A stretch of 64,000 nucleotides of DNA from Minisyncoccota bacterium (GTDB taxonomy: Bacteria > Patescibacteriota > Minisyncoccia > Phycocordibacterales > UBA2100). Positions 15,394-32,186 of this stretch are shown one piece after another. Positions within the stretch are counted from its first letter, which is position 1; every line of letters begins with the position of its first letter. Where the stretch lies: contig JAGOVW010000002.1 of the NCBI GenBank assembly GCA_018060545.1, positions 141-64,140 of the forward strand, given 5' to 3'. The notes below the pieces were generated by a model. It had not been told where the DNA came from, did not search any database, and was given only the letters and a program-made list of their open reading frames with translations. Made by a program: the position numbers and the translations under genes.

Positions 15394-16059
15394 ATGACCA
15401 TCGTGAATCAAAACTCGGCTCGAAATGCGTTCAACGCTATTTTTCCAACGCCATCTCCGGCGGATGTGGCGATATTCCTGTTTTTGCTCACGCTGGTGAT
15501 GGCGACATATATTCCCACAGTACTTTCGTGCGTTGCCGAAGGTTGCCTTGCCCTAAGTATTCGCGAAGAAACGGTGCCGCTCGCTGATGTTGCGCATATG
15601 GTAGTGACTCTCCCAATCTTGTCGCTCGCCGCCATCTCTTTCGTGGGGGCGATATACGCCATCCTTCTGGGAAAATTGTCCCTTACCACACAACTCAGTC
15701 CAACGTTTCGCATCCACGGGTTTTCGTACCTGCTGTACATCATCAGTGTGATCGGGGCGCAATACAGTGTGGGAGATGTGTCGCTGTGGCTCGTCTTCGC
15801 ACTTCCTGTATGTATGTATGGATTTCTCTTTCTCAATCGCTTTGCGCAGCTGCATGATCTTAACCCACGAAATGAATATGGGGTTATCCGGCCACTATTC
15901 GTACTCCTGAGTACGATATTGGCTGCGGGATTGTTTGCGTACTACGCATACCTCCTGGAACAGCATCCAATACTAGCGCTTGCGAATGCGTACGGCACGT
16001 ACATTCTTCTGAGCATTCCGTATCGCATGTTTATTACGCCAATCAAGCGAGGAAAGTAG
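15394..16059 (+). CDS. Integral membrane protein, unknown function
   Basis: Start moved to MTIVNQ to avoid overlap with the convergent membrane ORF. Multiple TM helices. Confidence 0.4.
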   Translation: MTIVNQNSARNAFNAIFPTPSPADVAIFLFLLTLVMATYIPTVLSCVAEGCLALSIREETVPLADVAHMVVTLPILSLAAISFVGAIYAILLGKLSLTTQLSPTFRIHGFSYLLYIISVIGAQYSVGDVSLWLVFALPVCMYGFLFLNRFAQLHDLNPRNEYGVIRPLFVLLSTILAAGLFAYYAYLLEQHPILALANAYGTYILLSIPYRMFITPIKRGK

Positions 16060-16127
16060 CTAAGGGTAGGGATCTAGCACTCGCTATCGAAGTAACCTTT
16101 CGACCGTCAAAATATAATCGCTGATGC

Positions 16128-16721
16128 TTACGGCAAGTTCACAGTGTTCTCCTTAAGCACATCTATGCTTGCATAAAAATATGCTTGAATGCCTAACTTC
16201 CTAGCATTGTCTATATTCTTCTGACTGTCACAGAAAAACATAATCTCTTCGGAGGCTAGGTTTAGTTCCTTGGAAACATGGTCCCAATATCCTTGTTCCC
16301 ATTCATCATAACCAATATCACAAGTGCAGAATGTCCCTTCAAAGTAATCTTTTAGGCCAACCACATTTAGTAAATATTCTTTTCTATACTTTTCCTGGCG
16401 GGTGGCAATATAACACCTCACTCCTTTCTCACTTAGCTCACGTACTAGCTTCAATACTTCTTTGTCTGTATTACTTTCACCTTCAAACCAGTAATTCAAA
16501 AAATCATCAACTGTGCCTACATAACCCCATTTTGCTAAATATGGTGCAATTTTCTCTCTCAGGTCAGCTCTTCCAAATGAACATTCTCTAAAATCGTTAG
16601 CAAAAAACTCGGATACTTGCTCATATGGAATATTCATTTCTTCTGAAATACGCTGACTGAAGAGCTTGCCGTTTCCAATTATTACCAGCCCATCAAGATC
16701 AAAGAGTATTGCTTTTGTCAT
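16128..16721 (-). CDS. HAD-superfamily hydrolase
   Basis: MTKAILFDLDGLVI (motif I DxDG). Start moved off the tRNA-Ser gene. Confidence 0.65.
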   Translation of the reverse strand: MTKAILFDLDGLVIIGNGKLFSQRISEEMNIPYEQVSEFFANDFRECSFGRADLREKIAPYLAKWGYVGTVDDFLNYWFEGESNTDKEVLKLVRELSEKGVRCYIATRQEKYRKEYLLNVVGLKDYFEGTFCTCDIGYDEWEQGYWDHVSKELNLASEEIMFFCDSQKNIDNARKLGIQAYFYASIDVLKENTVNLP

Positions 16722-16738
16722 ACTGTGATTGAACTTTG

Positions 16739-16825
16739 CGGAGAGGGAGGGATTCGAACCCTCGAGAATCTTTCGACTCTGCCGGTTTTCGAAACCGGTG
16801 CTTTCGACCACTCAGCCACCTCTCC
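16739..16825 (-). tRNA. tRNA-Ser (anticodon CGA), class II long variable arm
   Basis: ggagaggtggctgagtggtcgaaagcaccggtttCGAaaaccggcagagtcgaaagattctcgagggttcgaatccctccctctccg. Anticodon loop ttCGAaa, long variable arm. Confidence 0.8.
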
Positions 16826-16924
16826 GTGGACCTACATATTACTCGAAATCTTGGAGTTTGCAGGTGTTGGCGTATCAATCACTAATTCGTCCATCTGCTT
16901 GGTTTCTCGCAGGGACTCATGGAG

Positions 16925-16941
16925 CACTCAGCCACCTCTCC
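16925..16941. repeat. 17-bp direct copy of the tRNA-Ser 5' end (cactcagccacctctcc)
   Basis: Identical to 16809-16825. Lies about 100 bp upstream of the tRNA in tRNA orientation. Confidence 0.6.
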
Positions 16942-17027
16942 TGGTGACAAACGACGAGACTATACCACAAATACACCGCATTGGCTTTATTTTTTCACCA
17001 AAAATGCTACACTCGCCCTGTTCGGAC

Positions 17028-17099
17028 GGCCCTATCGTCTAATGGTTAGGACAGCGGCTTTTCAAGCCGTTAATCCGGGTTCAATTCCCGGTAGGGTCA
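17028..17099 (+). tRNA. tRNA-Glu (anticodon TTC)
   Basis: ggccctatcgtctaatggttaggacagcggctttTTCaagccgttaatccgggttcaattcccggtagggtca. Clean cloverleaf. Confidence 0.8.
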
Positions 17100-17283
17100 C
17101 AAAATTAAGTAGGGCAAAGCGAAGCTTTGGGCGACTATACATTTTGTAAGGTCGACCAGGAATTGAAGGCCGGAGGGGCGGGACCCATCAGCAGATGGGA
17201 CGCCGAGGCAGGGTCGTGGAATTTTAAGATGCGACGGCATCTTAGAGTATCCCTGACCAATTCTCGCTAGAGTCACAAATCGA
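17100..17283 (+). ncRNA. Candidate structured RNA or processing cassette between tRNA-Glu and a terminator; identity unknown
   Basis: No ORF. Internal hairpins (cccatcagcagatggg; taagatgcgacggcatctta). Bounded by tagggtcacaaaat (tRNA-Glu 3' end plus trailer) and a degenerate copy tagagtcacaaatc at about 17267-17283. Confidence 0.2.
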
Positions 17284-17313
17284 CAAAAGGAAGTGGACTG
17301 CTCCACTTCCTTT
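17284..17313 (+). terminator. Intrinsic terminator hairpin (aaaaggaagtggactgctccacttcctttt)
   Basis: 11-bp stem flanked by A- and T-runs. Bidirectional. Confidence 0.5.
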
Positions 17314-17631
17314 TGCGTTTTGTGAAGACGGAGCCATGTTTCGTTAGCAAACGAAACGGGCGAGTCCGGCGTAGATTTTGCTAGGAGCGCAGCGAGTTAG
17401 AAAATCAAATGCAGAGCTGCTGGAAAATTCACGTTTGACGAAACGTGAATTATTGTGGCCCACGTGGATCAGTACACGCAGTGATCAACATTCGTGCATA
17501 GACTTCGATTCTAATTATGCCCTGTCCCCTTATGGCCTGAATTAGCAAAGAAATGACACATACTCTCACTTTGTGTGGGCATAGCGAATCAAATCTTCAT
17601 GAGAAGGAAGCTTGATTCCAAGCAGACTAGG

Positions 17632-17829
17632 CTAGACTTTGGGATTAGGACGCGGATTATCTTGCTGTTGCGGTTCAGCAAATCCTGAAAAGAGAGTTTC
17701 TATGTAGGCCGCCATTGTTTCTGAAACAGGATGAATCTTTCTCGCGGGAGTTAGCAAATCCTTACCCTCTCTCAACATGTTACTCGAGCTATTAGAATCA
17801 CTCCTCTCAATCTCCAAAAATGAAGGCAT
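17632..17829 (-). CDS. Small ORF (65 aa) immediately downstream of the protease-like gene; doubtful
   Basis: Co-directional and AT-rich, with no motif. Confidence 0.15.
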   Translation of the reverse strand: MPSFLEIERSDSNSSSNMLREGKDLLTPARKIHPVSETMAAYIETLFSGFAEPQQQDNPRPNPKV

Positions 17830-17847
17830 AGTGTCTACTTTATACCT

Positions 17848-19152
17848 TTAATTAAAGTACTTTTCAATGAAGCCCCGATTCAGTTCGAGACTAAAGTAGT
17901 GCTTCCTCTTTATCCAGACAAACCCGTCACCCTTGGTAATTACCGCAACGTCGACAGGCCCCCCGACACTTTCATCTGCTGCGTTCGAAGTAAATTTCCT
18001 TCTTAAGGATGTAATGCTTACAAGAGATTCCGCCATTTCTGCCATGTCTTCTTTTCCCATGAACGCAAGAATATCGAGCAAAGGTTTGGTGATTGCATCC
18101 CAGCGATACTTATATAGCTCACTAATCATCTTTTCTCCGATTTCCTTTATTGCTGCGCTGATACTTTGAGCTTCGGTTTGATCAGATAATTTTGGTGCAA
18201 CTTGTGTAGAGACGGTCTCAAATGATACTCTGATGGACTTCTCAACCTCGGCCTCGTATTTGGGATCAACGCCGGTGAGGACTGTCATTGTTACATCCTC
18301 CTGAGCATAAGGGACTATGTTTGCGTTAGCTGTACCTGGAGAAATTCTAATTGGGTCTTGAATATCGTAGCGAATTGAATCTTGGATTACGCAGCCAACC
18401 AGTACACAGTGATTAGATGGGTACATTTCTTTTTCCCCGAAACCCATGAAGACCAAGCCCGAATGAGGCTCAAAAATTTGTGCCACTTTTGTGAGCCCGA
18501 GGACAAACTCGTTTATTGCCACCTTATCTTCGGTTGTCAGGCGGTGATTCGGATACTTCTTAGCGATCTCCACTTGGAGCGCCTTTGGAATTTCGCTAAG
18601 TAAATCTTGATATTCGCTCACGAATTGCTCATACGAACTATCCATTGAACTATTCCTTGGCAGAGCCAAGATATCATCACGATATTCACGAATCGCTGTT
18701 GATATCATCGGTGTTATATAGATCGCGGCAGCATCGGGGTCAAGAGTATTAGTATTTGCTTCGTTATCCGCAATGGACTTAATGACCTTCTGTTTTAATT
18801 CGCCAAAATTACCTGAACAAAGTTGGAAAAAAGCATTATTTCGAGACTCGGGTGTGATGTGGGCGAGCTGCTCTTTCAGGAACGTAAGAAAATTAGTCTG
18901 GTACTTTTCGACAGTATCAAACTTCTTCTCACCGAGCTGTTCTCGATAAACTTTTATAAGAGCCTCCCAAGGTATGCCCATAAAATCTGCGTTGTTGTAG
19001 ATTGCGATACCGACAGGGTGGTACTTAGACAGGGTGAACAACTTATTGCTCTTGTTGTAAACCTTCTTGATGTCACCGGACGATACAGTAGCCGCGCTAT
19101 CAGCGGCGATTGCAATCCCTTGAGCATTTAGGACACTTATGATCGCTGTCAT
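17848..19152 (-). CDS. Proteasome-beta/HslV-like Ntn hydrolase (N-terminal Thr) with a large internal insertion
   Basis: With the start at M-T, the mature N-terminus is TAIISVLNAQGIAIAADSAATVSSGDIKKVYNKSNKLF, giving Thr1, Asp17 and Lys33 at the canonical proteasome-beta positions. The C-terminal segment AADESVGGPVDVAVITKGDG matches the D-x-x-S-G-G ... ITKDG end of the beta-subunit fold. About 250 aa of mostly helical insert lie between the two halves. Confidence 0.55.
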   Translation of the reverse strand: MTAIISVLNAQGIAIAADSAATVSSGDIKKVYNKSNKLFTLSKYHPVGIAIYNNADFMGIPWEALIKVYREQLGEKKFDTVEKYQTNFLTFLKEQLAHITPESRNNAFFQLCSGNFGELKQKVIKSIADNEANTNTLDPDAAAIYITPMISTAIREYRDDILALPRNSSMDSSYEQFVSEYQDLLSEIPKALQVEIAKKYPNHRLTTEDKVAINEFVLGLTKVAQIFEPHSGLVFMGFGEKEMYPSNHCVLVGCVIQDSIRYDIQDPIRISPGTANANIVPYAQEDVTMTVLTGVDPKYEAEVEKSIRVSFETVSTQVAPKLSDQTEAQSISAAIKEIGEKMISELYKYRWDAITKPLLDILAFMGKEDMAEMAESLVSITSLRRKFTSNAADESVGGPVDVAVITKGDGFVWIKRKHYFSLELNRGFIEKYFN

Positions 19153-19415
19153 ACGTGCCGTCATAACATCATTTATTAGTGAATATGTCCAGGAGTGTCC
19201 AAAGCTTCTCAAAATAGCGATTCAGTATCCGCATCGTGCCGCCCCCTGATCCGATAATCCCGGTGGCTACCGGGTGCCCAAAACTTGCGAATTCCTGTGC
19301 ATTTCTGACCGGCCTTTGCTAAGGTATGTTTCGTGAATGACTCCGTAGTTACACCAATGATTCTTGTCTCAGGCAATGTTTTCTCCGATATGAATTTTCA
19401 ACTCCTTGAGTTTCA

Positions 19416-19441
19416 AATCCCTCCCTCTCCGCAGAGTCGAA
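19416..19441 (+). repeat. Displaced, inverted copy of the tRNA-Ser 3' end (aatccctccctctcc) plus variable-arm fragment (gcagagtcgaa), followed by a hairpin
   Basis: 15 nt identical to the tRNA-Ser T-arm/acceptor 3' strand, in the opposite orientation to the intact gene 2.6 kb away. It is followed by cctctccgcag...ctgcggagagg, an 11-bp stem at about 19421-19470, immediately upstream of the HEPN-like gene. Confidence 0.55.
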
Positions 19442-19484
19442 CGCAGTAAAATACTGCGGAGAGGAGCAATAGTGCGGGGCACCG

Positions 19485-20750
19485 TTGCGAGAGGGATATG
19501 AAAGCCGGAGCGGGCCACAGCCGAGCACGACTGGGAGCGAGGCACGGTGTGCGGCGAGAATTACAACGGCGATGGGGAGCGCTCAACCAAAGCGAGCTTA
19601 TTACTTAACTTTATCGCCCATTGACTTCATAATAGGCGGCATGCCAGGTCAAGAACAACGTACGAGTGGGTCGCAGCAGGTGGTGGATAACCGGATGAGG
19701 TTTATTCGCCTGCTCGAAAGCGATCAGCCGCCGGAATATCGGGCTGAATATGAGTTTGCTTCAGAGGCTCGAATTACTGGCCAACTCAACTATTCAAACG
19801 ATGACCTGATCCTCCGGCTTCTCACCATGGAGCCGAATCGGGATGGCCTCTTGAAGTACACCCTTTCTCTTGCCGCACCTGCGGAGTATCGCTTACCCGC
19901 ATATCAATCTAGTAAAGATGGCTACTACTTTGAGGGCGGAGGCTCCGAAGAAATATTGTCTTTAGTTTCCTTACATTTGAGGTGTCGTTCTTTTCCTATT
20001 TCCTATGTCTTTCGAGATCTCAATGGTCCTCCGTTAACGAAGTTTGAACACGACTTTAACTACATAAAACCGGACAAGGGTGCGGATAAATATCTATTTG
20101 ATACATCAAATAGAAACTTCGTAACTCTCAGCGACTTTTTTGATTTGGTAAAGAGATTACCGGGAACCTTTCATCATCGCTTTGCAAATGCTGTCAGACT
20201 TTACGCTCTAGCCCTGCGAGAGGTGGGAGTGAATGACCAACAAGCATATATACATTTGGTCTCTGCGATAGAAATACTTTCAAAACATCAAGTCCTTCCT
20301 GAGGCGCGTGATCCTTTACAAGGTGTTGTAGATCAACTTAAGAGTGTTCTTGAACAAGGAACCCCGGAAGCAAAAGGAGACCTTGGTAATCTCCTTGAAC
20401 AAAGAAAAACGATGCTAAAGTTCATCGCTTTTATACAAGAGCATTCCGACGGAAAGTTCACTGATAGACCTGTGGAGGGTGCTATGGAGCATAAGATCTA
20501 CAAAGATAATCTTCCCGACGCGCTAAAAAAGATTTATAAGGCTCGGTCCAAGTATCTACATGAAGGCAGTTCGATGTACTTGAGCGTGCCTCGTGTCACT
20601 GTGGCAGATTGTGACTACGATTCTTCAATGGGGCAGACTATCGACAATAGGCAATTTGACCCTGAAGACAAACTCCCAAATCTAGTGTTTTTCGAGAAGC
20701 TTGTCCGGGAATGCCTCTTGAGTTACCTGAACACTCATCAGAGTACGTGA
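19485..20750 (+). CDS. Hypothetical protein with a C-terminal HEPN-like Rx4H motif (Abi-like putative RNase)
   Basis: The ORF track begins at a TTG. The true start is probably an internal ATG (MPGQEQ at about 19641 or MRFIRLL at about 19695). The C-terminal region ...LKFIAFIQEHSDGKF...KKIYKARSKYLHEGSS contains R-S-K-Y-L-H (Rx4H). The gene is AT-richer than its surroundings. Confidence 0.45.
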   Translation: MREGYESRSGPQPSTTGSEARCAARITTAMGSAQPKRAYYLTLSPIDFIIGGMPGQEQRTSGSQQVVDNRMRFIRLLESDQPPEYRAEYEFASEARITGQLNYSNDDLILRLLTMEPNRDGLLKYTLSLAAPAEYRLPAYQSSKDGYYFEGGGSEEILSLVSLHLRCRSFPISYVFRDLNGPPLTKFEHDFNYIKPDKGADKYLFDTSNRNFVTLSDFFDLVKRLPGTFHHRFANAVRLYALALREVGVNDQQAYIHLVSAIEILSKHQVLPEARDPLQGVVDQLKSVLEQGTPEAKGDLGNLLEQRKTMLKFIAFIQEHSDGKFTDRPVEGAMEHKIYKDNLPDALKKIYKARSKYLHEGSSMYLSVPRVTVADCDYDSSMGQTIDNRQFDPEDKLPNLVFFEKLVRECLLSYLNTHQST

Positions 20751-20864
20751 TAAGAGATGTGTTCGATAGATCCACGAAATCATGAGTGTAGATAGGGCAT
20801 ACTGGACTATCTTATTATAGAGAATGGGAAAAAATGGGCACGTCAAAATGCTATACTCCCACCC

Positions 20865-21578
20865 ATGAACACAAAAATAATTGTTGGTATTGTGGTGCTA
20901 TTGATCGCGGGCGGAGCTTATTTTGTGATGAGCAAGGAGAAAGCGGCTCCTGTGGCTGACACAGCACCAGTACCAGTTGAGGTACCGATGAAAACAGCGA
21001 ACGAGAAGATGTCTTTTTTCATCACCTCTAAAAACCCAGGGCAGGGTGGAAACTTGGGCGGGCTTGCAGGAGCGGATGCATACTGCCAAAGCTTGGCAGA
21101 GAGTGCTGGGGTAACAGGGAAATCATGGGCAGCATATCTTTCGACTACCGATACCGACCCAGCTAAGAACGTACACGCGAAAGACCGCATCGGTTCTGGC
21201 CCATGGTACAACTTCAATGGGGAACTAATTGCGAGCACTTCGGAAACATTGCACGGTGAAAATTTCTTGAACAAAGCAACTGCACTGGATGAACAGGGCA
21301 ATCAAGTGAAGGGGCGTGGCGATGAACCAAACGATCACGACATCCTCACTGGCTCTGATGCATTCGGAATGGCTGTAAGTACGAGCACTTCTACCACGTG
21401 TGATAACTGGACAGCAGCGACGAGCAGCTCGGCAATCGTGGGTCACCACGATCGTATTGGTATCAACGAAAGTGCACCGATGAAATCGTGGGTTTCCTCG
21501 CACCAGACGCGCGGCTGCAGCCTCGAGCAATTCCGCAGCACCGGTGGTGCAGGGTTGTTCTACTGCTTTGCGAAATAG
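20865..21578 (+). CDS. Membrane-anchored secreted protein with a C-type-lectin-like domain (EPN motif)
   Basis: N-terminal TM (IIVGIVVLLIAGGAYFV). Cys pattern ADAYCQSLA...WYNFNGE...RGDEPNDHD...CDNW...FYCF resembles the CTLD fold. Confidence 0.35.
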   Translation: MNTKIIVGIVVLLIAGGAYFVMSKEKAAPVADTAPVPVEVPMKTANEKMSFFITSKNPGQGGNLGGLAGADAYCQSLAESAGVTGKSWAAYLSTTDTDPAKNVHAKDRIGSGPWYNFNGELIASTSETLHGENFLNKATALDEQGNQVKGRGDEPNDHDILTGSDAFGMAVSTSTSTTCDNWTAATSSSAIVGHHDRIGINESAPMKSWVSSHQTRGCSLEQFRSTGGAGLFYCFAK

Positions 21579-23300: not shown

Positions 23301-26300
23301 ATGGAGCCAAAGGACACAGCACCCGTGCCTCCTGCACCAGCGCCCGATTTAGATGTGCCTGCTGCGGTTTCACCCGTATCCCAGATCAAACAGAAAGTTG
23401 CGACGCTCATTACGTGGGGTCGCACGCATCCATCAAAAAACACCGCAACCCTGGCACTGGGGGCTGTGCTCTCGCTTCTTGTGGTCATGCTGGTGGCGAA
23501 TGGTTTTGGAAAAGGCATCGCGTTCTTCACGCCCGATACGAATTATGTGCCCGTGTATACATTGGTGAATGACAAAATCTCGAAGAGCGGCGCGATTATC
23601 GTGAACTTGCCAGAAGGTGTGGCCCAAGCGAGTGCGGCAGCAGCCGTGACGTTTGATCCGCCGATTGCTGGCGAATGGATTCCTTCAAAGCTACGTGAGG
23701 CGGTGGTGTACAAGCCATCTGAACAACTGACCGTGGGCAAACACTACCTGGTATCGCTGGCGACCGAAGAGGGTGTCATCAAAAAAGATTTTCTTGTGGA
23801 TGAGGATCCCCGTGTGTTAGACATGTTCCCATCCAAAGACGCTGAAGCAGATCCGGCTTCCACCATCACCATCGTATTCAATCGGCCCATGGTGCCCTTA
23901 ACCACGCTCTCTGAGTTGGATGCACTGGAGGTGCCAGTGGGAATCACGCCACAGACTCCTGGCAGATTTAAATGGATTAGTACGCGTACGCTACAATTCA
24001 CGCCTACATCCGCGCTTGCTGGTTCGGCCAACTACTCGGTAACAATTGGCGATGATTTTGTTTCGATGGATGGGCTTGCGGTACCAGCAGTCACCCATAC
24101 ATTCACCACGAAGCGCTTGCGTCTTGATCAGGTAACATCTGGTGCAATTGTGTACAACGAACCCGTGCAGCTGTATTTCAATCAGCCAATTGATCTGGAG
24201 CGCACACACAGGGAAATTACGCTCACCGATGTGGCAGCAGGAAGAGCAATTGATTTTGTTGCAGCATATGGGCAGAAAACGGTGTACGACCAATCAAGCG
24301 GCACGATGCAGAAAGTTGAAGATCAATCGATCCTCAGTGTGGTGCCTAAAAATTCCCTCAACGGGCATGCAAACGTCTGGCGTTTTGATGGTGTGTACCG
24401 AGTGGTGGTGCAGAAAGCGTATACCGTGGGCGGGGACATTCCACTCCCAGAAGCGGGTTCTGATCCTGCAGCTGCAACCGACATCGTAGCAAGTGGTGTC
24501 CTGAGAGAGGTAACCGCACAGTCAGAGAAATCTACTTTGGTTTCGCCTGCACTCTTTGATCCGTCAGGCACCGTTACCTTTGCTTTCCATGAAGCGATTG
24601 ATATTGGGAAAAGTACGATTCGTGGCAAGGGAATGAAGAAGATTTCCTATGGCGAGACGTGCAAGCAAACAGAGCAAGACGACTACTATAGTGCTGCGTG
24701 CGAAAAGGTACCCGACGAATCCACTCTGGTGATGACCTTTGATGAGGGTGCGTATGCGCGGGGCGAGCAGGTACCGATTACGTTTGAACGGCTGTTCAAT
24801 GCTGCGGGCTACCAAGTGAACAGCGAACCGATCGTATCCACGCTCTCGGTATATCCAGCACTTAAAGTACGAATGATGCCTTCAGATGGTGCCACCTCTG
24901 CAAGTGTGAAAGATTTGGTCGTGTGCTCGAATGCACCTCTCAAGCCACAGGAAGCAACTGCGTTTTACGAGCAGGTAAAGGCCAATAATTACCTGGTATT
25001 TGGCAGGTGGGACAACCCGTACCTAGAGGGAGAGATGAACTACTATGGGGCCGAGCGGCTGTGCGCCGTGGGTGAGTACGTGAACAAAATCGCTTACGGG
25101 CTTTTACCACAGAAGCCGTATACCCTCACGGCGTCTTTTGAAGACGTGTTTGCACAGAAAGCGAGCGTCAACGCCTCACTCGCTACTGGGCGCGCACCGC
25201 TCTTCTATTTGCGGTTCCAGAATTTGCAAAAAATATACAACGTAACGACACCCGAGCACACCAAGCTTACCTATGCGACAGAAAACTTTGATTACGTGAA
25301 TCTTTCCATCTGCAAAGTGTCGCCCGACGCTATGGTGCAATACCTCGCAGCGGAGCCGAGTGAAGTATCCACAAAGCCTACCAGTGCATTTGCGTGTACG
25401 TCGTCGGTAAACGAGCGCATTCAGTTGAAGAGCGACCAGTGGGTAAACCAGTATTTCCAAGTAGATCTGAAACAGTATTTCCCCGATCCGCGCGGGCAGT
25501 ATGTGGTGTCGTTTACGCATCCGCAGTATGTAGACGCGCAGGGGGCAGCGCTGTATGGGCGCACGTATGTGAGCGTGACAAATCTTGCCGCAACGTCGAA
25601 ACGCGTGAAGTGGTCGTCATACGATTACACTCCAGAGACACCAGATAGGACCGACATGGACACCCGTGGTGCGGTGTATTGGGTGAGTCAGATGCAATCG
25701 CTGTTGCCGGTTTCGGGTGCACAGGTGAAAGTGTACAAAGCGGGGGCGACGCAGGAGTGGGGTGGAAACAATCCTGCGGTACCACCGATTCTTGCAAGTG
25801 TAACGAGCACTAATGCTGGTGGGTTTGGTGAGTTCACGCTGATTCCTGATGTGGTGGGTGCCGCTATAACGCACGGAGCAGAATCAGCAGTCGTTTCAGC
25901 CTGGGCCGACACGCTCAATAGCCCCAGCTGGCAGGACGCTCGCCAAGACGAAAAAATGTACCTATACACCGATCGGCCGATATACCGACCGGGGCAAGAG
26001 GTATTTGTGAAAGGGCTCTACCGCATGCATTTCGACGGTGTATTCAAAGTGTTCGACGAGGCAGACATGAAAGTGGAAGTGCGCGACAGCAAAGGCGAGG
26101 TAGTGCTTTCGCAAAAGCGGCCAGTGAGTGCGTACGGTACTTTTTCAACGAGCGTAAAACTACCCGCTGATGCACCGCTGGGTTCATACTCCATTTCGGC
26201 TGGGAATGGATGGGCATCATTTGATGTTGCTGAGTATGTGGGCGCTGCGTTTGAAGCAAAGGCCGAGACCGATAAGGAGGAGTATCTTGCCGGGGAAACT

Positions 26301-29300
26301 GCGCGGCTGGCGATTTCAGGAAAATACTACTTTGGGGTGCCGCTTGATGGTGGGGTGCTTGAGTACAGCCTCAGTGCGCAGAATTTCCATTTCGACAGAT
26401 ACAAGGATGAGTACTTTAGCTTCGGTAATTCATGGTACTCCTGCTACGACTGTGGCTACGGCGATACGTACTTAAAGAGTGGTAAAGCAACGCTTGATGC
26501 GCAGGGTATTGCGCACCTCGAGCAGTCTCTCGATTTCGCGCAGCTCTTCACGGGCGAAACGGGTGGCCAGAGCAAAATATTTGTGTTGCACGGCACGATA
26601 AAAGATAAGCAGGGCAAATCGGTCAGTTTCCAGAAGTCGTTCATTGTGCATCGTGGCAGCTTGTACCTAGGAGTAAAAACAGATCCTACATTTACAGGGG
26701 CGAACCAGGATGTAGCGCTTCGCCTCAAGACGGTTGATGTGCAAGGAAAGCCTACGGCGAAAAGCGGCATCACTGTGGTGGTGAATAAAGTAGGCTGGGA
26801 ATCATACAAACGACAAGAGGTTGATGGCGGATACTACAATCGTCCGCAGCAGATTCTCACCCCTGTTATTACGAAGCGCGCATCAACAAATAGTGCTGGC
26901 GAGTATACCGAGCAGTTGAAGCTTGCAGAGCCTGGCCAGTATCAGATAGTGGCGACCACCGAAGATGGCAAGGGAAATACGGTTACCGGCGTGAGTGACC
27001 TATACGTGTATGGTGCCGGTACGATTGATGTGCGTCCTACCAACAACGCCACCCTAAACGTGCGTGCTGAAAAGACTGATGTGAAAGCGGGCGATATGGC
27101 GCAGTTCATCATCGAGTCGCCGTTCCCGCGAGCAAAGGCGCTGATATCTATAGAGCGTGGCCGCATCTTCACCTATGAAGTGATAGACATCACGCAGAGC
27201 ATGTACCAGTACGAGTTTCCGATTACCGAAGACTATGCGCCCAACGTGTTTGCCTCGGTGGTGCTCTTGGCACCAGGTCCGGCTATTAAGTTTGGGCAGG
27301 TAGAGTTTACGGTAGACAAGAAAGCCAAAGAGCTCACGATTGACCTAAAGGCCGACAAGACCGCGTACCTTCCGGGCGAGAAGGTGACTCTTGCTATTAA
27401 AACTACTGATGCCGCGGGCCGTGCGGTGCCAGCGAATGTATCCCTTGCTGTGGCTGATTTAAGCGTGCTAGCCCTAAAAGGTAATCCAAAGAAAGATCCG
27501 CTACTCTTTTTCTATGACGGGTTTCCGCTCACGGTTACTACCGAAGCCAACGTTAAAAACTTGCTGATGGAAGCAGAGATTCCGACGGGTAACAAAGGTG
27601 GCGACGGTGGCAACCCGGCAGATTTGGCTACACGTAAGCGTGGAGAGTTTAAAGACACTGCTTTTTGGCAAGCAGATGTGATAACGAATGCGCAAGGAAT
27701 GGCTGAAGTTTCGTTCACTCTTCCGGACAATATTACGCGTTGGCAAATTGAATCGGTGGGGCTCACCAAAGATACGCGGCTCGGGGTGCGGTACGCGGAA
27801 TTGCTGGCGCAGAAGGAAGTGATGGCGGTGCCATTGAAGCCACGATTTATCGTACCAGGCGACACCTTCATGCTCGGTGCAAAGATTTTCAATCAGAGTG
27901 CCAATACGCAAACACTCGAGGTGACTTTTGAAAGCGATACGCTTACGTTTGAGGATACACCGCGTGCACGCAAAACAATCAAAGCAGGGGAGAGTGACGT
28001 GGTGTATGTAGAGGTGACCGCACCGGAGTCGGTGCAGAGTGGAGTGCATTCATTTACGCTTTCAGCAAAGAACGGGAGCTATAACGATACGGTGGAGCAA
28101 ACCATTTCGATTACGCGAAACATGACGTATGAGTCTACGGCAACAGCAAACTCAACGAGTGCAGTCAGCGCCAAGGAGTATCTGTACCTACCAGACGGGC
28201 TTCTGAAAGATCGTGGTGGACTCACGATAAAAACGAGCGCCACTTTGGCTGTGTACCTCACGGATGCGCTTACCTATCTATTTGAATACCCATACGGATG
28301 TTCGGAGCAGCTTGCTAGCCGCCTTTCTGCAATGGCGATTACAAAAAAGGCGCTTGCGGTGCCGAATGTTGGTACATCATTTGATCTGCCAGAAGTAACT
28401 ATGGGTGGCGTTTCCTATACAGTAGATGAGGCTATCGCCAAAGGACTTGAGCAAATATACGATAGCCAAAATGCTGATGGCGGATTTGCGTACTACAAAG
28501 GTTTGAAAGCTGATCCATACGTCTCTATCCACGTGCTTAATACACTTATGGATATCAAGGCTGCTGGATACCCTGTGCGTCCGCAGGTCATCAATAACGC
28601 GGTGAGCTATTTGTATGGTCAGGTGTCGTACTTCAAAAAGCAGCAGGGCAGCGCCGATACACTCGTGCTCCTTACCTATGCACTTTCGCGTGCAGACCAG
28701 GGATCAGGAAGTTATGCGGCACTGGTACAGCAGGTAGCAGGCCTTGCTACACCACGCTACCTGAGCGACACCGCAAGCAGTAACTCGCTGGCGTATTTGG
28801 CCCTCATAACCACGCGGGCGAATGTGTCGGCTGCATTTAAAGAAAAAGTATTTGCTGCACTCATCAATAGGGTGGAGATAGATTCACGTGGAGCGTACGT
28901 GAAAACAAATCCTGCCAATACCGGCTGGGCCTACTACGAGACCGCAGAGAAGAACACCGCACTGTTCCTGAAAGCGTTGGTAGCTGATGAGCGAGTGTAT
29001 ACACAGACCGACAGTGTGTTGCGCTGGCTTTTGGCGAGCCGTGCCAGTGACGGCTCGTGGGGCTCTACCAATGCGTCTGTTGCCGCTATTGACGCACTGT
29101 CGGAATACTTGCTATGGAAGCGCGAAACGGAGTCACGCTTTACCTTAACGACCACTCTTGATGAAAAGGAAGTATCAACCACTGCATTTGGCGCTGATAA
29201 CATCCTCGCCACCATTACCACGTTCCTGCCAATTGCTGAGATGAAGACCAGCGCGGCACAGGCCATCTCGTTCACTAAATCGAACGCGAGCGAACTGGCG

Positions 29301-29957
29301 AACACGTTCTATTACGACCTGAGTCTCAAGTACTTCTTGCCGGTAAAGCAGATTGCACCGCGTGACGAGGGTATTGCTATTACGCGTGCGTTCTACCGCC
29401 TGACAGACACGGCACAACAAGAGCCGCTTACGAATGCGAAGGTGGGCGAGGTGGTAAAGGGTGTATTAACGATTATTTCCCCAAAGGAGCGGCACTTGTT
29501 TGCCGTAGAAGACTACATACCAGCTGGCTTCGAGATTGTGGATTTCAGCCTGGCGACTGAAGACGAAGAGACCATTACGAATGCTGTTGGTACTGAGAAT
29601 GCAGCGCCCGCTCTTGCCAGTGCGCAGCCGGTCAGGCGTTCGATAACGGAGCGCATACTCGGCAATTCGCACACACAAGTGGCGGGCGCGGGAATCCTTG
29701 GGGGATCGCTGGCGCCTACGGCATCCGCACGCCGCGCGCCGGTATATCAAACGTTCTACCCAGACTTCGACGAGCTACACGATGATCGCATCTTCTTATT
29801 TGCAGAACATCTTGCACCGGGCGCCTATACGTATGAGTACTACCTGCGCGCCACGACGCCCGGCGCATTTAGCCATCTGCCTGCAGTGGCGAGCGATCTG
29901 TACTTCCCAGAAAACTTTGGCAGAACAGCAGGCTCAACGTTTACGGTAGAACAGTAG
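23301..29957 (+). CDS. Alpha-2-macroglobulin family protein (bacterial A2M, YfhM/ECAM-like), unusually large, N-terminal TM anchor
   Basis: 2218 aa. N-terminal TM segment, repeated beta-rich MG-like domains. Thioester-type motif YPYGCSEQLASRL (Cys-x-Glu-Gln) at about nt 28300. PBP1C gene adjacent. Confidence 0.8.
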   Translation: MEPKDTAPVPPAPAPDLDVPAAVSPVSQIKQKVATLITWGRTHPSKNTATLALGAVLSLLVVMLVANGFGKGIAFFTPDTNYVPVYTLVNDKISKSGAIIVNLPEGVAQASAAAAVTFDPPIAGEWIPSKLREAVVYKPSEQLTVGKHYLVSLATEEGVIKKDFLVDEDPRVLDMFPSKDAEADPASTITIVFNRPMVPLTTLSELDALEVPVGITPQTPGRFKWISTRTLQFTPTSALAGSANYSVTIGDDFVSMDGLAVPAVTHTFTTKRLRLDQVTSGAIVYNEPVQLYFNQPIDLERTHREITLTDVAAGRAIDFVAAYGQKTVYDQSSGTMQKVEDQSILSVVPKNSLNGHANVWRFDGVYRVVVQKAYTVGGDIPLPEAGSDPAAATDIVASGVLREVTAQSEKSTLVSPALFDPSGTVTFAFHEAIDIGKSTIRGKGMKKISYGETCKQTEQDDYYSAACEKVPDESTLVMTFDEGAYARGEQVPITFERLFNAAGYQVNSEPIVSTLSVYPALKVRMMPSDGATSASVKDLVVCSNAPLKPQEATAFYEQVKANNYLVFGRWDNPYLEGEMNYYGAERLCAVGEYVNKIAYGLLPQKPYTLTASFEDVFAQKASVNASLATGRAPLFYLRFQNLQKIYNVTTPEHTKLTYATENFDYVNLSICKVSPDAMVQYLAAEPSEVSTKPTSAFACTSSVNERIQLKSDQWVNQYFQVDLKQYFPDPRGQYVVSFTHPQYVDAQGAALYGRTYVSVTNLAATSKRVKWSSYDYTPETPDRTDMDTRGAVYWVSQMQSLLPVSGAQVKVYKAGATQEWGGNNPAVPPILASVTSTNAGGFGEFTLIPDVVGAAITHGAESAVVSAWADTLNSPSWQDARQDEKMYLYTDRPIYRPGQEVFVKGLYRMHFDGVFKVFDEADMKVEVRDSKGEVVLSQKRPVSAYGTFSTSVKLPADAPLGSYSISAGNGWASFDVAEYVGAAFEAKAETDKEEYLAGETARLAISGKYYFGVPLDGGVLEYSLSAQNFHFDRYKDEYFSFGNSWYSCYDCGYGDTYLKSGKATLDAQGIAHLEQSLDFAQLFTGETGGQSKIFVLHGTIKDKQGKSVSFQKSFIVHRGSLYLGVKTDPTFTGANQDVALRLKTVDVQGKPTAKSGITVVVNKVGWESYKRQEVDGGYYNRPQQILTPVITKRASTNSAGEYTEQLKLAEPGQYQIVATTEDGKGNTVTGVSDLYVYGAGTIDVRPTNNATLNVRAEKTDVKAGDMAQFIIESPFPRAKALISIERGRIFTYEVIDITQSMYQYEFPITEDYAPNVFASVVLLAPGPAIKFGQVEFTVDKKAKELTIDLKADKTAYLPGEKVTLAIKTTDAAGRAVPANVSLAVADLSVLALKGNPKKDPLLFFYDGFPLTVTTEANVKNLLMEAEIPTGNKGGDGGNPADLATRKRGEFKDTAFWQADVITNAQGMAEVSFTLPDNITRWQIESVGLTKDTRLGVRYAELLAQKEVMAVPLKPRFIVPGDTFMLGAKIFNQSANTQTLEVTFESDTLTFEDTPRARKTIKAGESDVVYVEVTAPESVQSGVHSFTLSAKNGSYNDTVEQTISITRNMTYESTATANSTSAVSAKEYLYLPDGLLKDRGGLTIKTSATLAVYLTDALTYLFEYPYGCSEQLASRLSAMAITKKALAVPNVGTSFDLPEVTMGGVSYTVDEAIAKGLEQIYDSQNADGGFAYYKGLKADPYVSIHVLNTLMDIKAAGYPVRPQVINNAVSYLYGQVSYFKKQQGSADTLVLLTYALSRADQGSGSYAALVQQVAGLATPRYLSDTASSNSLAYLALITTRANVSAAFKEKVFAALINRVEIDSRGAYVKTNPANTGWAYYETAEKNTALFLKALVADERVYTQTDSVLRWLLASRASDGSWGSTNASVAAIDALSEYLLWKRETESRFTLTTTLDEKEVSTTAFGADNILATITTFLPIAEMKTSAAQAISFTKSNASELANTFYYDLSLKYFLPVKQIAPRDEGIAITRAFYRLTDTAQQEPLTNAKVGEVVKGVLTIISPKERHLFAVEDYIPAGFEIVDFSLATEDEETITNAVGTENAAPALASAQPVRRSITERILGNSHTQVAGAGILGGSLAPTASARRAPVYQTFYPDFDELHDDRIFLFAEHLAPGAYTYEYYLRATTPGAFSHLPAVASDLYFPENFGRTAGSTFTVEQ

Positions 29958-32186
29958 CTACTGCTCTACTACACGGACAGTAACTTTTTCTGGTGTGCCG
30001 TGTTCAGGTTGCGCGGTAATCGTGTAGGTACCCGCTGCGCGCGGTTTAAAGAACACACGAGCTCCTTCACCGATGAACGCACCATTCGCAGACCACGAGA
30101 CTGATTCCGTGGCGACAAGGGGAATGGTGGTTCGTGCTTCCCACAGAAACGTGTCACCAGATTGTGGCGAGGTCAGAATCCCTGTGTTGGGGAGCGCGTG
30201 CCGATGTTCTGCAACGACATCACCTGGTAGACCAAAATCAATACTGCCATCAATGAATACGTCCTCGGTGAGATCGAAAGAGAATGGTGTTTTAAGGTTG
30301 TAGGGAGAGTTTAGAAGAAGTTCCATAGAATCTTTCCAAATGGCTCCCGCGCCTGACTGCCCTGTGATTTGCTTTAGGGGTTCATTTTCAGCATTCCCCA
30401 GCCACACAGCCACCACAAAATCCGGTGTATAGCCTACCGTCCAACTGTCGTGATAATCGCGAGAGGTGCCCGTCTTTACGGCGTAGTTACGTTGGAAGAG
30501 ATTAAGGTTGCCTGCAAGGCCGAACTGCTCGACACCTGCGTAGCGGTCATTCAGGACTCGCGTCACGAGTTGGGTGAGTGCAGGGTCGGCTACTTTTTTC
30601 TCCATGCTCACACTCGACATGGGGGTGCGGATGGTCCGCGTGCCTCCGGGGTGGCTTAGGAAAAGTTGCAGTGGCTTGAGGGTTCCTTGTGCAGGGAAAA
30701 TGGTGAGGTAGTGCGCGAGCGTGAGTGGATCCATTTCAAGTCCACCGAGCGCGATTCCATATTGGTAACTATCAAGAGGGTTGAGTGGGAGGAATTGCAG
30801 GCGCTGCTCTAGAAATGTATAGAAATCGGACAGGCCAATGTATTGCAGCGTTTTAACGGTGGGGACATTCAGACTGTTCGAGAGTGCTGTGTGGAGCGTA
30901 ACCCATCCCCGATAGAGTCCATCATAATTCTTTGGATACAACGGAAATCCTGATGCAGTGGGGAACTTATACTCCCGGTCGTCAACGAGTGTATAGGGGC
31001 GGAGTCCTTTTTCGAACCCCGCGAGGTAAATAAATGGCTTTGCGGTCGAGCCGATGGGGCGTGGCTCGATAGCCATATTTATTTGCTGTCCACTTTCGGT
31101 TCCGTAAACATCGGGTGTGCCCACGATAGCAAGCAACTGATTTTCAGGAAGTTTTATCACTACAATTGCGCCGTTGCGTGCGCCTGCGGCATATCCCCGA
31201 TCCACATGGCGGCGCAACAGAGCGCGCAGCTGCTGGGTGAGCTCTTTATCAATGGTGGTTTGGCAGGTTGCTGGGCATGCTGTGCGCATCGAGGAGAGTT
31301 CAAAATTGCGTGGCGGAGCATATTGGTGGACGGTCGTCACTGTGGCAAGGGATGGATCAAACGCAATACCGATACGTAGTGCAAGATTTCGCGAGACGCG
31401 CGCATTCTCTTCTTCCCACGGGTTCTGCAGACTCGGGCTTGAAAGGGTAGCTACGAGCATCATGATTTTTGTGTCATCGAGCTCGTGGAGTGGCTTGTTG
31501 AAATAGAGTTCACTGGCGCCCGATAGCCCCTGGATGTGATTACCCATGAACACCGTGTTTGCGTACATGAGCAAAATCTCGTCTTTGGTTGAAAACAGCT
31601 CGAGCGACAGTGCGTAGAGAAGCTCAATCCCTTTGTTTAGAAATGATCGGTCCTGCTCGTGTGCCAAAAGGTTCTTCACCAGTTGTTGGGTGATCGTGCT
31701 AGCACCTCCGATGCGATTCCCGGTGACGTAGCGCCACGCTGCACGAGATGTGCTGAACGGATTGAGGCCGGGATGGTAGTAGAAAAAGCGATCTTCTTTC
31801 TCAATGAGAAGCTCTGCTACCCGTGCAGGGAGGGTGTCCGTATATGCGGCATATACGTCTTTCTTATTGGGCAACAGGGTTAGTACTTGGTGGTGGCGGT
31901 CGAGAAGCGCGACTGATTCGAGAGCGGAGTAGTTGTGGCGAAGGTGACGCTGTGCTGCATAGCTCAAGACTATGGTGGCAGTGAGCGCGACGAAAGTGAT
32001 GAGAACGATATGTAGCGAGCGCGCATAGGGGTGTTTGGCGTGACGACCGAATGCGAAGCGCATCCTGGATAGATATTCTCGAGGGGATGCCATCATCCGC
32101 ACAGTGTACCGTACTCGCTCTTGCATAAAGGCGAAGGTGCCTGGGTGGTAGCTTGTGCACAGTGCTGTTGTATCTACCCCACGCAC
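29958..32186 (-). CDS. pbpC: Penicillin-binding protein 1C (bifunctional transglycosylase/transpeptidase)
   Basis: N-terminal TM. GT51 motifs (RFFYYHPGLNP; GGSTITQQLVKN). Transpeptidase STAKPF (SxxK), SLN and KTGTS. PBP1C-type C-terminal domain. The start is probably an internal Met (MQERV/MMASP/MRFAF), since the tracked start leaves only 11 bp to the divergent gene. Confidence 0.8.
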   Translation of the reverse strand: MRGVDTTALCTSYHPGTFAFMQERVRYTVRMMASPREYLSRMRFAFGRHAKHPYARSLHIVLITFVALTATIVLSYAAQRHLRHNYSALESVALLDRHHQVLTLLPNKKDVYAAYTDTLPARVAELLIEKEDRFFYYHPGLNPFSTSRAAWRYVTGNRIGGASTITQQLVKNLLAHEQDRSFLNKGIELLYALSLELFSTKDEILLMYANTVFMGNHIQGLSGASELYFNKPLHELDDTKIMMLVATLSSPSLQNPWEEENARVSRNLALRIGIAFDPSLATVTTVHQYAPPRNFELSSMRTACPATCQTTIDKELTQQLRALLRRHVDRGYAAGARNGAIVVIKLPENQLLAIVGTPDVYGTESGQQINMAIEPRPIGSTAKPFIYLAGFEKGLRPYTLVDDREYKFPTASGFPLYPKNYDGLYRGWVTLHTALSNSLNVPTVKTLQYIGLSDFYTFLEQRLQFLPLNPLDSYQYGIALGGLEMDPLTLAHYLTIFPAQGTLKPLQLFLSHPGGTRTIRTPMSSVSMEKKVADPALTQLVTRVLNDRYAGVEQFGLAGNLNLFQRNYAVKTGTSRDYHDSWTVGYTPDFVVAVWLGNAENEPLKQITGQSGAGAIWKDSMELLLNSPYNLKTPFSFDLTEDVFIDGSIDFGLPGDVVAEHRHALPNTGILTSPQSGDTFLWEARTTIPLVATESVSWSANGAFIGEGARVFFKPRAAGTYTITAQPEHGTPEKVTVRVVEQ

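Follow-up and report, generated by a model that had tools for sequence, protein, structure and literature searches.

The subject here is a 64,000-nucleotide stretch of DNA, referred to as the window, from a Minisyncoccota bacterium (GenBank assembly GCA_018060545.1, contig JAGOVW010000002.1, positions 141 to 64,140), and in particular a compositionally deviant segment of it in which two divergent genes, termed A and B, lie to one side of two tRNA genes. The source records are those of a Candidatus Pacebacteria metagenome-assembled genome (MBP9668851.1 / KBE09_01020 and KBE09_01025). Gene A encodes what looks like an N-terminal threonine hydrolase of the proteasome beta fold and is followed, on its own strand, by a small open reading frame (ORF) that is its near-obligate partner; gene B encodes a protein with a HEPN-like C-terminal domain. 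A first-pass annotation, made from the letters without database searches, had taken A and B to be a single horizontally acquired two-gene module, possibly a HEPN toxin under the control of a protease. As set out below, the conserved companion of A is the small ORF and not B.

Table 1. Features of the segment (positions are those of the window)
Feature	Position	Strand	Basis or remark
Gene A, proteasome-beta-fold N-terminal-Thr hydrolase, PMI type, 434 residues, two helical insertions	17848..19152	-	
Partner ORF, 65 residues, 18 nucleotides downstream of gene A stop, second operon gene	17632..17829	-	
Terminator-like hairpin directly after partner ORF	17610..17623	-	consensus scan only
Gene B, 369 residues, N-terminal beta-rich and C-terminal helical HEPN-like domain	19641..20750	+	R302-S303-x3-H307 invariant
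tRNA-Ser (CGA), intact	16738..16825	-	Rfam scan
tRNA-Glu (TTC), intact	17028..17100	+	Rfam scan
Copy of tRNA-Ser 5' end, 20 nucleotides, 19/20 bases matching, between both tRNA genes	16922..16941	-	repeat analysis
Copy of tRNA-Ser 3' end (T-arm plus acceptor), between genes A and B, inverted relative to intact gene	19412..19437	+	
Three perfect hairpins	17284-17315, 17337-17358, 17426-17451	none	
Low-GC compositionally deviant stretch, lowest GC of window	16100..20860	none	

Where does the gene A protein begin, and does it have the makings of an enzyme? The ORF ends at 17848, and ATG 19152 gives M-T-A-I-I-S, MTAIISVLNAQGIAIAADSA, so that the protein begins M-T as first proposed; every homolog also starts at MTA(I/V). 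The NCBI record (MBP9668851.1) places the start at ATG 19164, four codons upstream, for a product of 438 residues beginning MTARMTAIIS, and if that start is used a five-residue propeptide, MTARM, must come off to expose Thr1. With the start at 19152 a propeptide is absent, and the Thr1 nucleophile would be exposed once Met1 had been removed. Homology searching returned more than 6,268 proteins, nearly all of about 430 residues, unannotated and without a Pfam domain, and scans of Pfam, NCBIfam and PADLOC gave no significant match to gene A. Among 39 aligned homologs, down to 36% identity, M1, T2, D18 and K37 (Met numbering) are invariant, as are the ESVGGP.D segment and GDGF.W.KRK, while G48, the equivalent of Gly47, is conserved in at least 90%. 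The C-terminal D-E-S-V-G-G-P-V-D-V-A-V-I-T-K-G-D-G-F, invariant or nearly so, aligns to RDSASGGMIDVAVITRKDGY of the Thermoplasma proteasome beta subunit, which the family profile matches weakly (E 0.06) in both of the expected places, Thr1 falling on Thr1, D on E17, K37 on K33, and SVGGPVDVAIITKGDGF on SASGGMIDVAVITRKDGY. In this the first-pass annotation did well, as both the Asp it had put at position 17 counted from Thr and the C-terminal D-E-S-V-G-G...VAVITKGDG are borne out. It was right also about an invariant Lys within YNKSNK, though it had picked the first K, at position 33; the one that aligns to proteasome K33 is the second, at Thr-based position 36, because the S2-S3 loop is 3 residues longer.

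Gene A has the alpha-beta-beta-alpha sandwich of the beta subunit that marks proteasome-like N-terminal nucleophile (Ntn) hydrolases (T1 fold), and also the Thr nucleophile, Asp/Glu17, Lys33, Gly47 and the C-terminal Asp166/Ser169-Gly-Gly segment. By its conserved residues the protein has an intact proteasome-type catalytic centre without a propeptide; it is active-looking and probably an active enzyme. An AlphaFold2 (AF2) model (predicted local distance difference test score, pLDDT, 85; predicted template modelling score, pTM, 0.80) gives by DSSP the order H62-73, H81-98, helices 101-221, S5, and then H285-293, helices 297-362 and H367-388. The proposed Ntn fold with large insertions is thereby upheld, with the catalytic set complete. 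What does not stand is one block of about 250 extra residues between the two halves, as there are two insertions: a helical block of some 125 residues (about 100-225) after H1/H2, at the pore-loop site, and a two-helix hairpin of some 65 residues (about 297-362) between H3 and H4.

It had also been said that no family of this architecture has been described. One has: among the 22 new proteasome-homolog families of Fuchs, Alva and Lupas (Bioinformatics 2021; PMC8665760) are the PMI, Proteasome homologs with Multiple Insertions, which have no propeptide, and of these PMI-3 and PMI-4 have long insertions at the pore-loop site after H1/H2 and another between H3/H4. PMI-4, the largest PMI family, is tabulated there from Proteobacteria, Firmicutes, Actinobacteria, Bacteroidetes, the Planctomycetes-Verrucomicrobia-Chlamydiae (PVC) group, Cyanobacteria, other bacteria, Euryarchaeota and phages. 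Gene A shares with PMI-3 and PMI-4 the proteasome-beta core, Thr1/Asp17/Lys33, the lack of a propeptide and the two insertion sites, and its family, judged from 80 genome loci and phage records, matches PMI-4 in its spread, with members in Proteobacteria, Firmicutes, Bacteroidetes, PVC, Cyanobacteria, Euryarchaeota and phages. It is a new member of a family described bioinformatically and never characterised. It also matches PHROG 5990 over its full length (E 7e-98), as do its phage and satellite homologs (E 1e-101 to 1e-152), PHROG 5990 being a phage protein family of unknown function whose entry is without annotation. There are two points of departure from the published account. In the tFold models of PMI proteins the insertions were without interactions with the core structure (PMC8665760), whereas the AF2 model of gene A packs them against it. 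Further, Fuchs et al. reported no genomic context or co-occurrence pattern that hinted at function (PMC8665760), whereas the gene A family has a near-universal small partner ORF, which no PHROG covers.

Better known relatives are more distant. In contrast to the 20S proteasome beta subunit, HslV, Anbu and BPH, gene A has some 190 extra residues at the two sites through which rings and double rings make contact, has neither an AAA+ partner nor an alpha subunit near it, and is carried by mobile elements. HslV/ClpQ has a subunit of about 175 residues and an HslU AAA+ partner; gene A has 434, with only the small ORF conserved nearby, and the HslV models in NCBIfam and Pfam do not match it, one phage homolog matching PHROG 1040 weakly (E 0.0033). 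Connectase, an archaeal proteasome-homolog protein ligase (PMC7980362), is a monomeric, sequence-specific transpeptidase. Like gene A it is a Thr1 proteasome homolog with helical insertions that probably give specificity, and both may act on a peptide motif; gene A, too, would be of non-ring form. It lacks the Connectase hallmarks, in which H1/H2 are lost and two helices are inserted between S3 and S4. A candidate ubiquitin-like link was considered in a ThiF fusion (P0108, locus L004 2825-4582), in which protease residues 1-335 are joined to an unrelated ThiF-like C-terminal region, and set aside: truncated at residue 335, it is without H4, the SVGG strand and the catalytic C-terminal strands, and so probably stems from disruption of a gene or from a chimeric assembly.

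The partner ORF is what the gene A family adds to that picture. A small ORF was scored where an ATG-started frame of 40-100 residues began between -40 and +90 nucleotides from the gene A stop. In 80 genome loci, from Bacteroidota, Candidate Phyla Radiation (CPR) bacteria, Nitrospirota, Planctomycetota, Verrucomicrobiota, Bacillota, Cyanobacteria, Pseudomonadota and several archaea, it follows the gene A homolog in 79, against 34 of 264 (13%) other large ORFs there, and it is present also in 78 of 82 viral loci of gene A homologs. The median spacing is 5 nucleotides and 19 of the 79 overlap the stop codon; in the two contexts nearest to that of the window (L001, L003) a gene for 63-66 residues begins 2-5 nucleotides after the protease gene. 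In phage, satellite and plasmid records the small ORF is annotated as a coding sequence. All-against-all clustering of the ORFs in the 80 loci found nothing else conserved, antisense artefacts inside gene A apart. The small ORF is thus a near-obligate partner of gene A, co-translated with it.

The small proteins are of low overall conservation but can be aligned in register, with motifs common to several phyla, and similarity at BLAST level joins those of 25 Bacteroidota loci. A central hydrophobic or aromatic-basic motif takes the form DVLSVFKQ in Bacteroidota, EYEKKYYPES or EWQKKFNPS elsewhere, and KDFF in streptococcal elements; the C-terminus is either an amphipathic helix (EISEIVSEKIIxVVKEQF; in the window PVSETMAAYIETLF) or an aromatic tail (NFFTKL, SFFSR). 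The window's own small protein has no match in Pfam, NCBIfam, PADLOC or PHROG. By their features the partners have the look of largely disordered peptides that would dock on the protease. A comparison of protease clade with partner type was not used, as the motif classes were too crude, many loci were lost, and shared descent alone would give a correlation. Partner genes of this type tend to be missed by standard gene calling and context analysis.

What then of gene B? Its start is most likely ATG 19641 and not the TTG at 19485 from which the first-pass annotation had counted, because all homologs and the NCBI record start there. A word-indexed search found 20 relatives and a full profile search 989 representatives. 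The C-terminal sequence, ...IYKARSKYLHEGSS, contains R302-S-K-Y-L-H307, which conforms to the HEPN Rx4-6H motif; R, S, H and G are invariant in the 20 close homologs, and R, S and H in 53 distant ones, so the Rx4H motif first noticed in the window is conserved in the family. Across those 53 members, down to 20% identity, the invariant residues are E211, Y299, R302, S303, H307 and P346. In the model (pLDDT 84.6, pTM 0.87) a beta-rich N-terminal domain (33-136) precedes a helical C-terminal domain (160-365), the motif lies at the end of the helix 291-308, third of the core helices (H3), and a long insertion comes before the last helix. No significant match was found for gene B in Pfam, NCBIfam or PADLOC; single family members gave weak matches to HEPN_Apea (E 0.21, 1 of 20 members), Abi_2 (0.0024) and PADLOC Cas13-ApeA (0.002). 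Against the PDB both a sequence-profile search and Foldseek found nothing.

The comparison that suggests itself is with ApeA, a single-protein HEPN anti-phage system whose active-site residues lie on H3 and which has an H3/H4 insertion; Ec2ApeA, with its catalytic Arg at residue 502, is predominantly helical and has separate N-terminal and Mid domains (bioRxiv 10.64898/2026.01.26.701840). Gene B, known from its sequence and model, resembles ApeA as a stand-alone protein with N-terminal non-catalytic sequence, a probable C-terminal HEPN-type domain, Arg and His on H3 and an H3/H4 insertion. Unlike ApeA it has 369 residues and a beta-rich N-terminal domain, and it has neither a significant match to HEPN_Apea or ApeA_NTD1 nor the N-terminal, Mid and HEPN domain set; it is not an ApeA member. 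On motif and model its C-terminal domain is likely, though not established, to be HEPN, and the whole is most likely a one-protein RNase toxin of HEPN type, in which the N-terminal domain would be the sensor, ApeA style, and which would act by cleaving RNA. The alternative, that gene B is no HEPN RNase and that R-S-x3-H comes from another kind of helical enzyme or binding domain, we think rather unlikely. To our knowledge few defence genes have been annotated in CPR bacteria, from which the close homologs examined here come, and with gene B comes a family of HEPN-like proteins that stand alone, some 1,000 representative clusters in number.

The neighbours of gene B homologs are varied, e.g., a 209-residue ORF, an EMARD_N protein and a DUF2441 protein, and homologs lie near large serine recombinases or a methyltransferase/excisionase-like pair. 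In two of three distinct contexts, in other CPR genomes, there is a tRNA-Ser near the homolog; at one of them, locus L088, it stands 0.95 kb upstream of the homolog, and the pattern in the window recurs without a difference at its 3' end. Between 2718 and 8623 of that locus tRNA-Ser is followed in turn by a DUF5677 gene, the B homolog, an EMARD_N gene and a recombinase (compare L087, 1-10793). Direct repeats of att type were sought in L088 and none was found. The B loci resemble small integrative elements that belong to one family and differ in their cargo.

Gene A and its partner are carried on mobile elements. With more than 6,000 sequence clusters, the gene A family ranges over bacteria, archaea, prophages, phage satellites and plasmids, and has 139 confirmed IMG/VR matches, 13 GenBank phage or satellite records and 10 plasmids. 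In Streptococcus 'Javan' satellite phages, protease and partner close the element as its last two genes. A lambdoid Providencia phage has the pair between Q/Dam and holin, a Stenotrophomonas phage has it inserted in reverse orientation between lysis and tail genes, and a Porphyromonas phage has it among head and neck genes. It is near a recombinase on a 41-kb E. faecium plasmid and inside a prophage region on a Pantoea megaplasmid, and the closest CPR homolog of gene A (59% identity) adjoins a large serine recombinase. These are positions typical of morons or accessory genes, and they suggest, short of proof, a role in defence, exclusion or addiction. A near-universal small partner together with moron-like carriage is new for the family, and makes its function testable.

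How might such a pair work? The insertions of gene A, being at the sites of the proteasome pore loop and ring-ring contact, would block assembly into proteasome-style rings, as Fuchs et al. 2021 also argue, and, as we would add, could confer substrate specificity by serving as a lid or a surface for docking. The partner would bind the protease about one-to-one, as inhibitor or antitoxin or else as adaptor; were it lost or displaced, on phage infection or loss of the element, the protease would be free to cleave specific cell or phage proteins. The two would then constitute a defence or addiction module, a reading that fits moron carriage on prophages, phage satellites and plasmids. The pair also shares with type II toxin-antitoxin systems the co-directional, tightly spaced or overlapping genes and the sporadic mobile distribution. 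In its full form the proposal is of a new and very widespread class of mobile-element defence or addiction system, in which a non-ring, sequence-specific Thr protease is checked or targeted by a short, mostly disordered partner; we put it forward tentatively, as a possibility short of probable. If true, it would supply a first function for the largest 'new proteasome homolog' family. Literature searches for a proteasome-like anti-phage system found none.

Several considerations tell against this proposal. The pairing is known from gene context and sequence, and binding of the partner to the protease is a presumption drawn from them, as is a defence or toxin role from the company the pair keeps. 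The order of genes, enzyme first and small protein second, is atypical of classical type II toxin-antitoxin pairs, and so is a partner without a DNA-binding domain. For many gene A homologs the surroundings are those of an ordinary chromosome, and no mobile genes are to be seen there. PADLOC models match neither gene A, nor the partner, nor gene B, so that a defence role is without support from a curated system. Finally, the assignment to PMI-3/PMI-4 fits by architecture and distribution, the representatives HDY66466.1 (PMI-4) and OGZ26396.1 (PMI-3) having been compared by description only and not by sequence clustering.

Might the pair have nothing to do with conflict? Gene A could be a processing enzyme or a Connectase-like ligase, and the small protein its substrate, whether a pro-peptide, a tag or a signalling peptide. 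There is the precedent of Connectase for monomeric proteasome homologs as sequence-specific transpeptidases, the short conserved motifs of the small proteins (xYEKKYYPES, EWQKKFNPS) are possible recognition sites, and one Pedobacter locus adjoins a C39-peptidase ABC exporter. We judge this substrate alternative unlikely.

Is gene B part of the same system? The first-pass annotation had itself named co-occurrence across genomes as a check on its module, and this was run by searching flanks of 6-8 kb around gene A homologs with tblastn and with a hidden Markov model of the gene B family alignment. None of 168 gene A loci holds a gene B homolog and none of four gene B loci holds gene A, i.e., the two are together in 0 of 172. 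A and B are adjacent and divergent in the window, sharing a 488-nucleotide intergenic region in an AT-rich stretch, and both have catalytic-looking invariant residues, which speaks for one divergently transcribed module, a proteasome-like protease controlling a HEPN toxin. However, to the lack of co-occurrence must be added that gene A has another, near-universal partner and that a tRNA-Ser fragment lies between A and B, as if at the junction of separate insertions; the single-module idea is now very unlikely, and its pairing of protease with HEPN, here corrected, would have misdirected experiments. The best explanation of the whole, and one that we hold to be somewhat better than an even bet, is that A with its partner and B are two independent cargo units in an AT-rich, tRNA-adjacent variable region. 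Arrival of gene B with a tRNA-Ser-associated element, separately from A and its partner, fits what is seen, with the reservations that no recombinase is nearby and that the fragment is inverted relative to the intact tRNA-Ser. That the small ORF is a chance frame or misannotation and gene A acts alone, to which its want of a Pfam, NCBIfam, PADLOC or PHROG family and its low overall conservation might point, is scarcely credible given its presence at 79 of 80 genome loci, where control genes reach 13%, and at 78 of 82 viral loci, a constant position and strand with a start that often overlaps the gene A stop, and similarity across 25 Bacteroidota loci with motifs in several phyla.

The composition of the segment marks it as foreign. 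From 17101 to 20860 GC is 45.3%, against 52.0 +/- 2.3% for windows of equal size, the tetranucleotide distance is about twice the median, and this is the sole part of the 64 kb to fall under 46% GC in 1-kb windows; gene A is at 43.6%, the partner ORF at 43.4% and gene B at 45.0%. The AT-richness seen by eye is thus confirmed by measurement and, with the tRNA fragment, speaks for the horizontal origin that had been proposed for the 'module', though not for the pairing of its genes. The stretch of low GC and high tetranucleotide distance in fact spans from about 15.5-16 kb to 20.9 kb and includes, left of the tRNAs, a gene for a HAD-family hydrolase (16128-16811, minus strand) with the lowest GC of the window, 39.5%. 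The maximal ORF of this gene overlaps the tRNA-Ser gene, so that translation probably begins at the internal MTKAILFDLDG, and the gene is perhaps foreign cargo at the tRNA-Ser 3' end. At the other side, after gene B, a plus-strand gene at 20865-21578 encodes 237 residues with an N-terminal hydrophobic segment and sub-threshold matches to DUF1554 and endostatin-like models; its GC of 51.4% is normal, and so it is probably the right edge of the foreign stretch.

As to the tRNA genes, the segment had been described as lying between tRNA-Ser and tRNA-Glu; both are on its left, so that it is beside them. The inverted copy of the tRNA-Ser 3' end is genuine, with 20 of 21 bases identical at 19412-19432 (plus strand), which 0 of 100 shuffles equalled, and a total copy of about 35 nucleotides at 19412-19437. 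The 40 bp that had been given as its distance from gene B is not: with the start at 19641 in place of 19485 the fragment is about 200 nucleotides upstream. Taken together the 5' copy and the inverted 3' copy suggest a past rearrangement of the tRNA-Ser gene. The marks of a tRNA-integrated genomic island, i.e., an integrase and, at the far boundary, the tRNA 3' end in direct repeat, are lacking; there is no recombinase among the ORFs flanking the segment, and a direct repeat or copy of the tRNA-Glu 3' end, sought as an island boundary, was not found.

Between tRNA-Glu and the end of the protease operon are 530 nucleotides without genes (17101-17631), with hairpins of 14, 9 and 11 bp and a fold z-score of -6.5. 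The perfect hairpin aattcacgttt/aaacgtgaatt, earlier noticed at the segment edge, is the one at 17426-17451 and is accompanied by the two further perfect hairpins of Table 1. An Rfam scan of 16000-21000 returned the two tRNAs only and nothing for this stretch; its hairpins may act as terminators on which tRNA-Glu and the protease operon converge, or they may form a repeat element. A 14-mer, AAAATGCTA(C/T)ACTC, occurs at 17001-17014, about 15 nucleotides upstream of tRNA-Glu, and again at 20845-20858, about 7 nucleotides upstream of the 20865 gene, and may be a reused extended -10-like promoter element.

Elsewhere in the window, at 23301-29957 on the plus strand, is a gene for a bacterial alpha-2-macroglobulin of 2,218 residues with MG2, bait region, A2M, TED and bMG10 domains. 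Convergent with it, at 29958-32186 on the minus strand, is one for a class A penicillin-binding protein (transglycosylase and transpeptidase), whose end abuts that of the alpha-2-macroglobulin gene exactly; together (23301-32186) they are what we take to be the familiar A2M-PBP1C pairing, here in a CPR genome.

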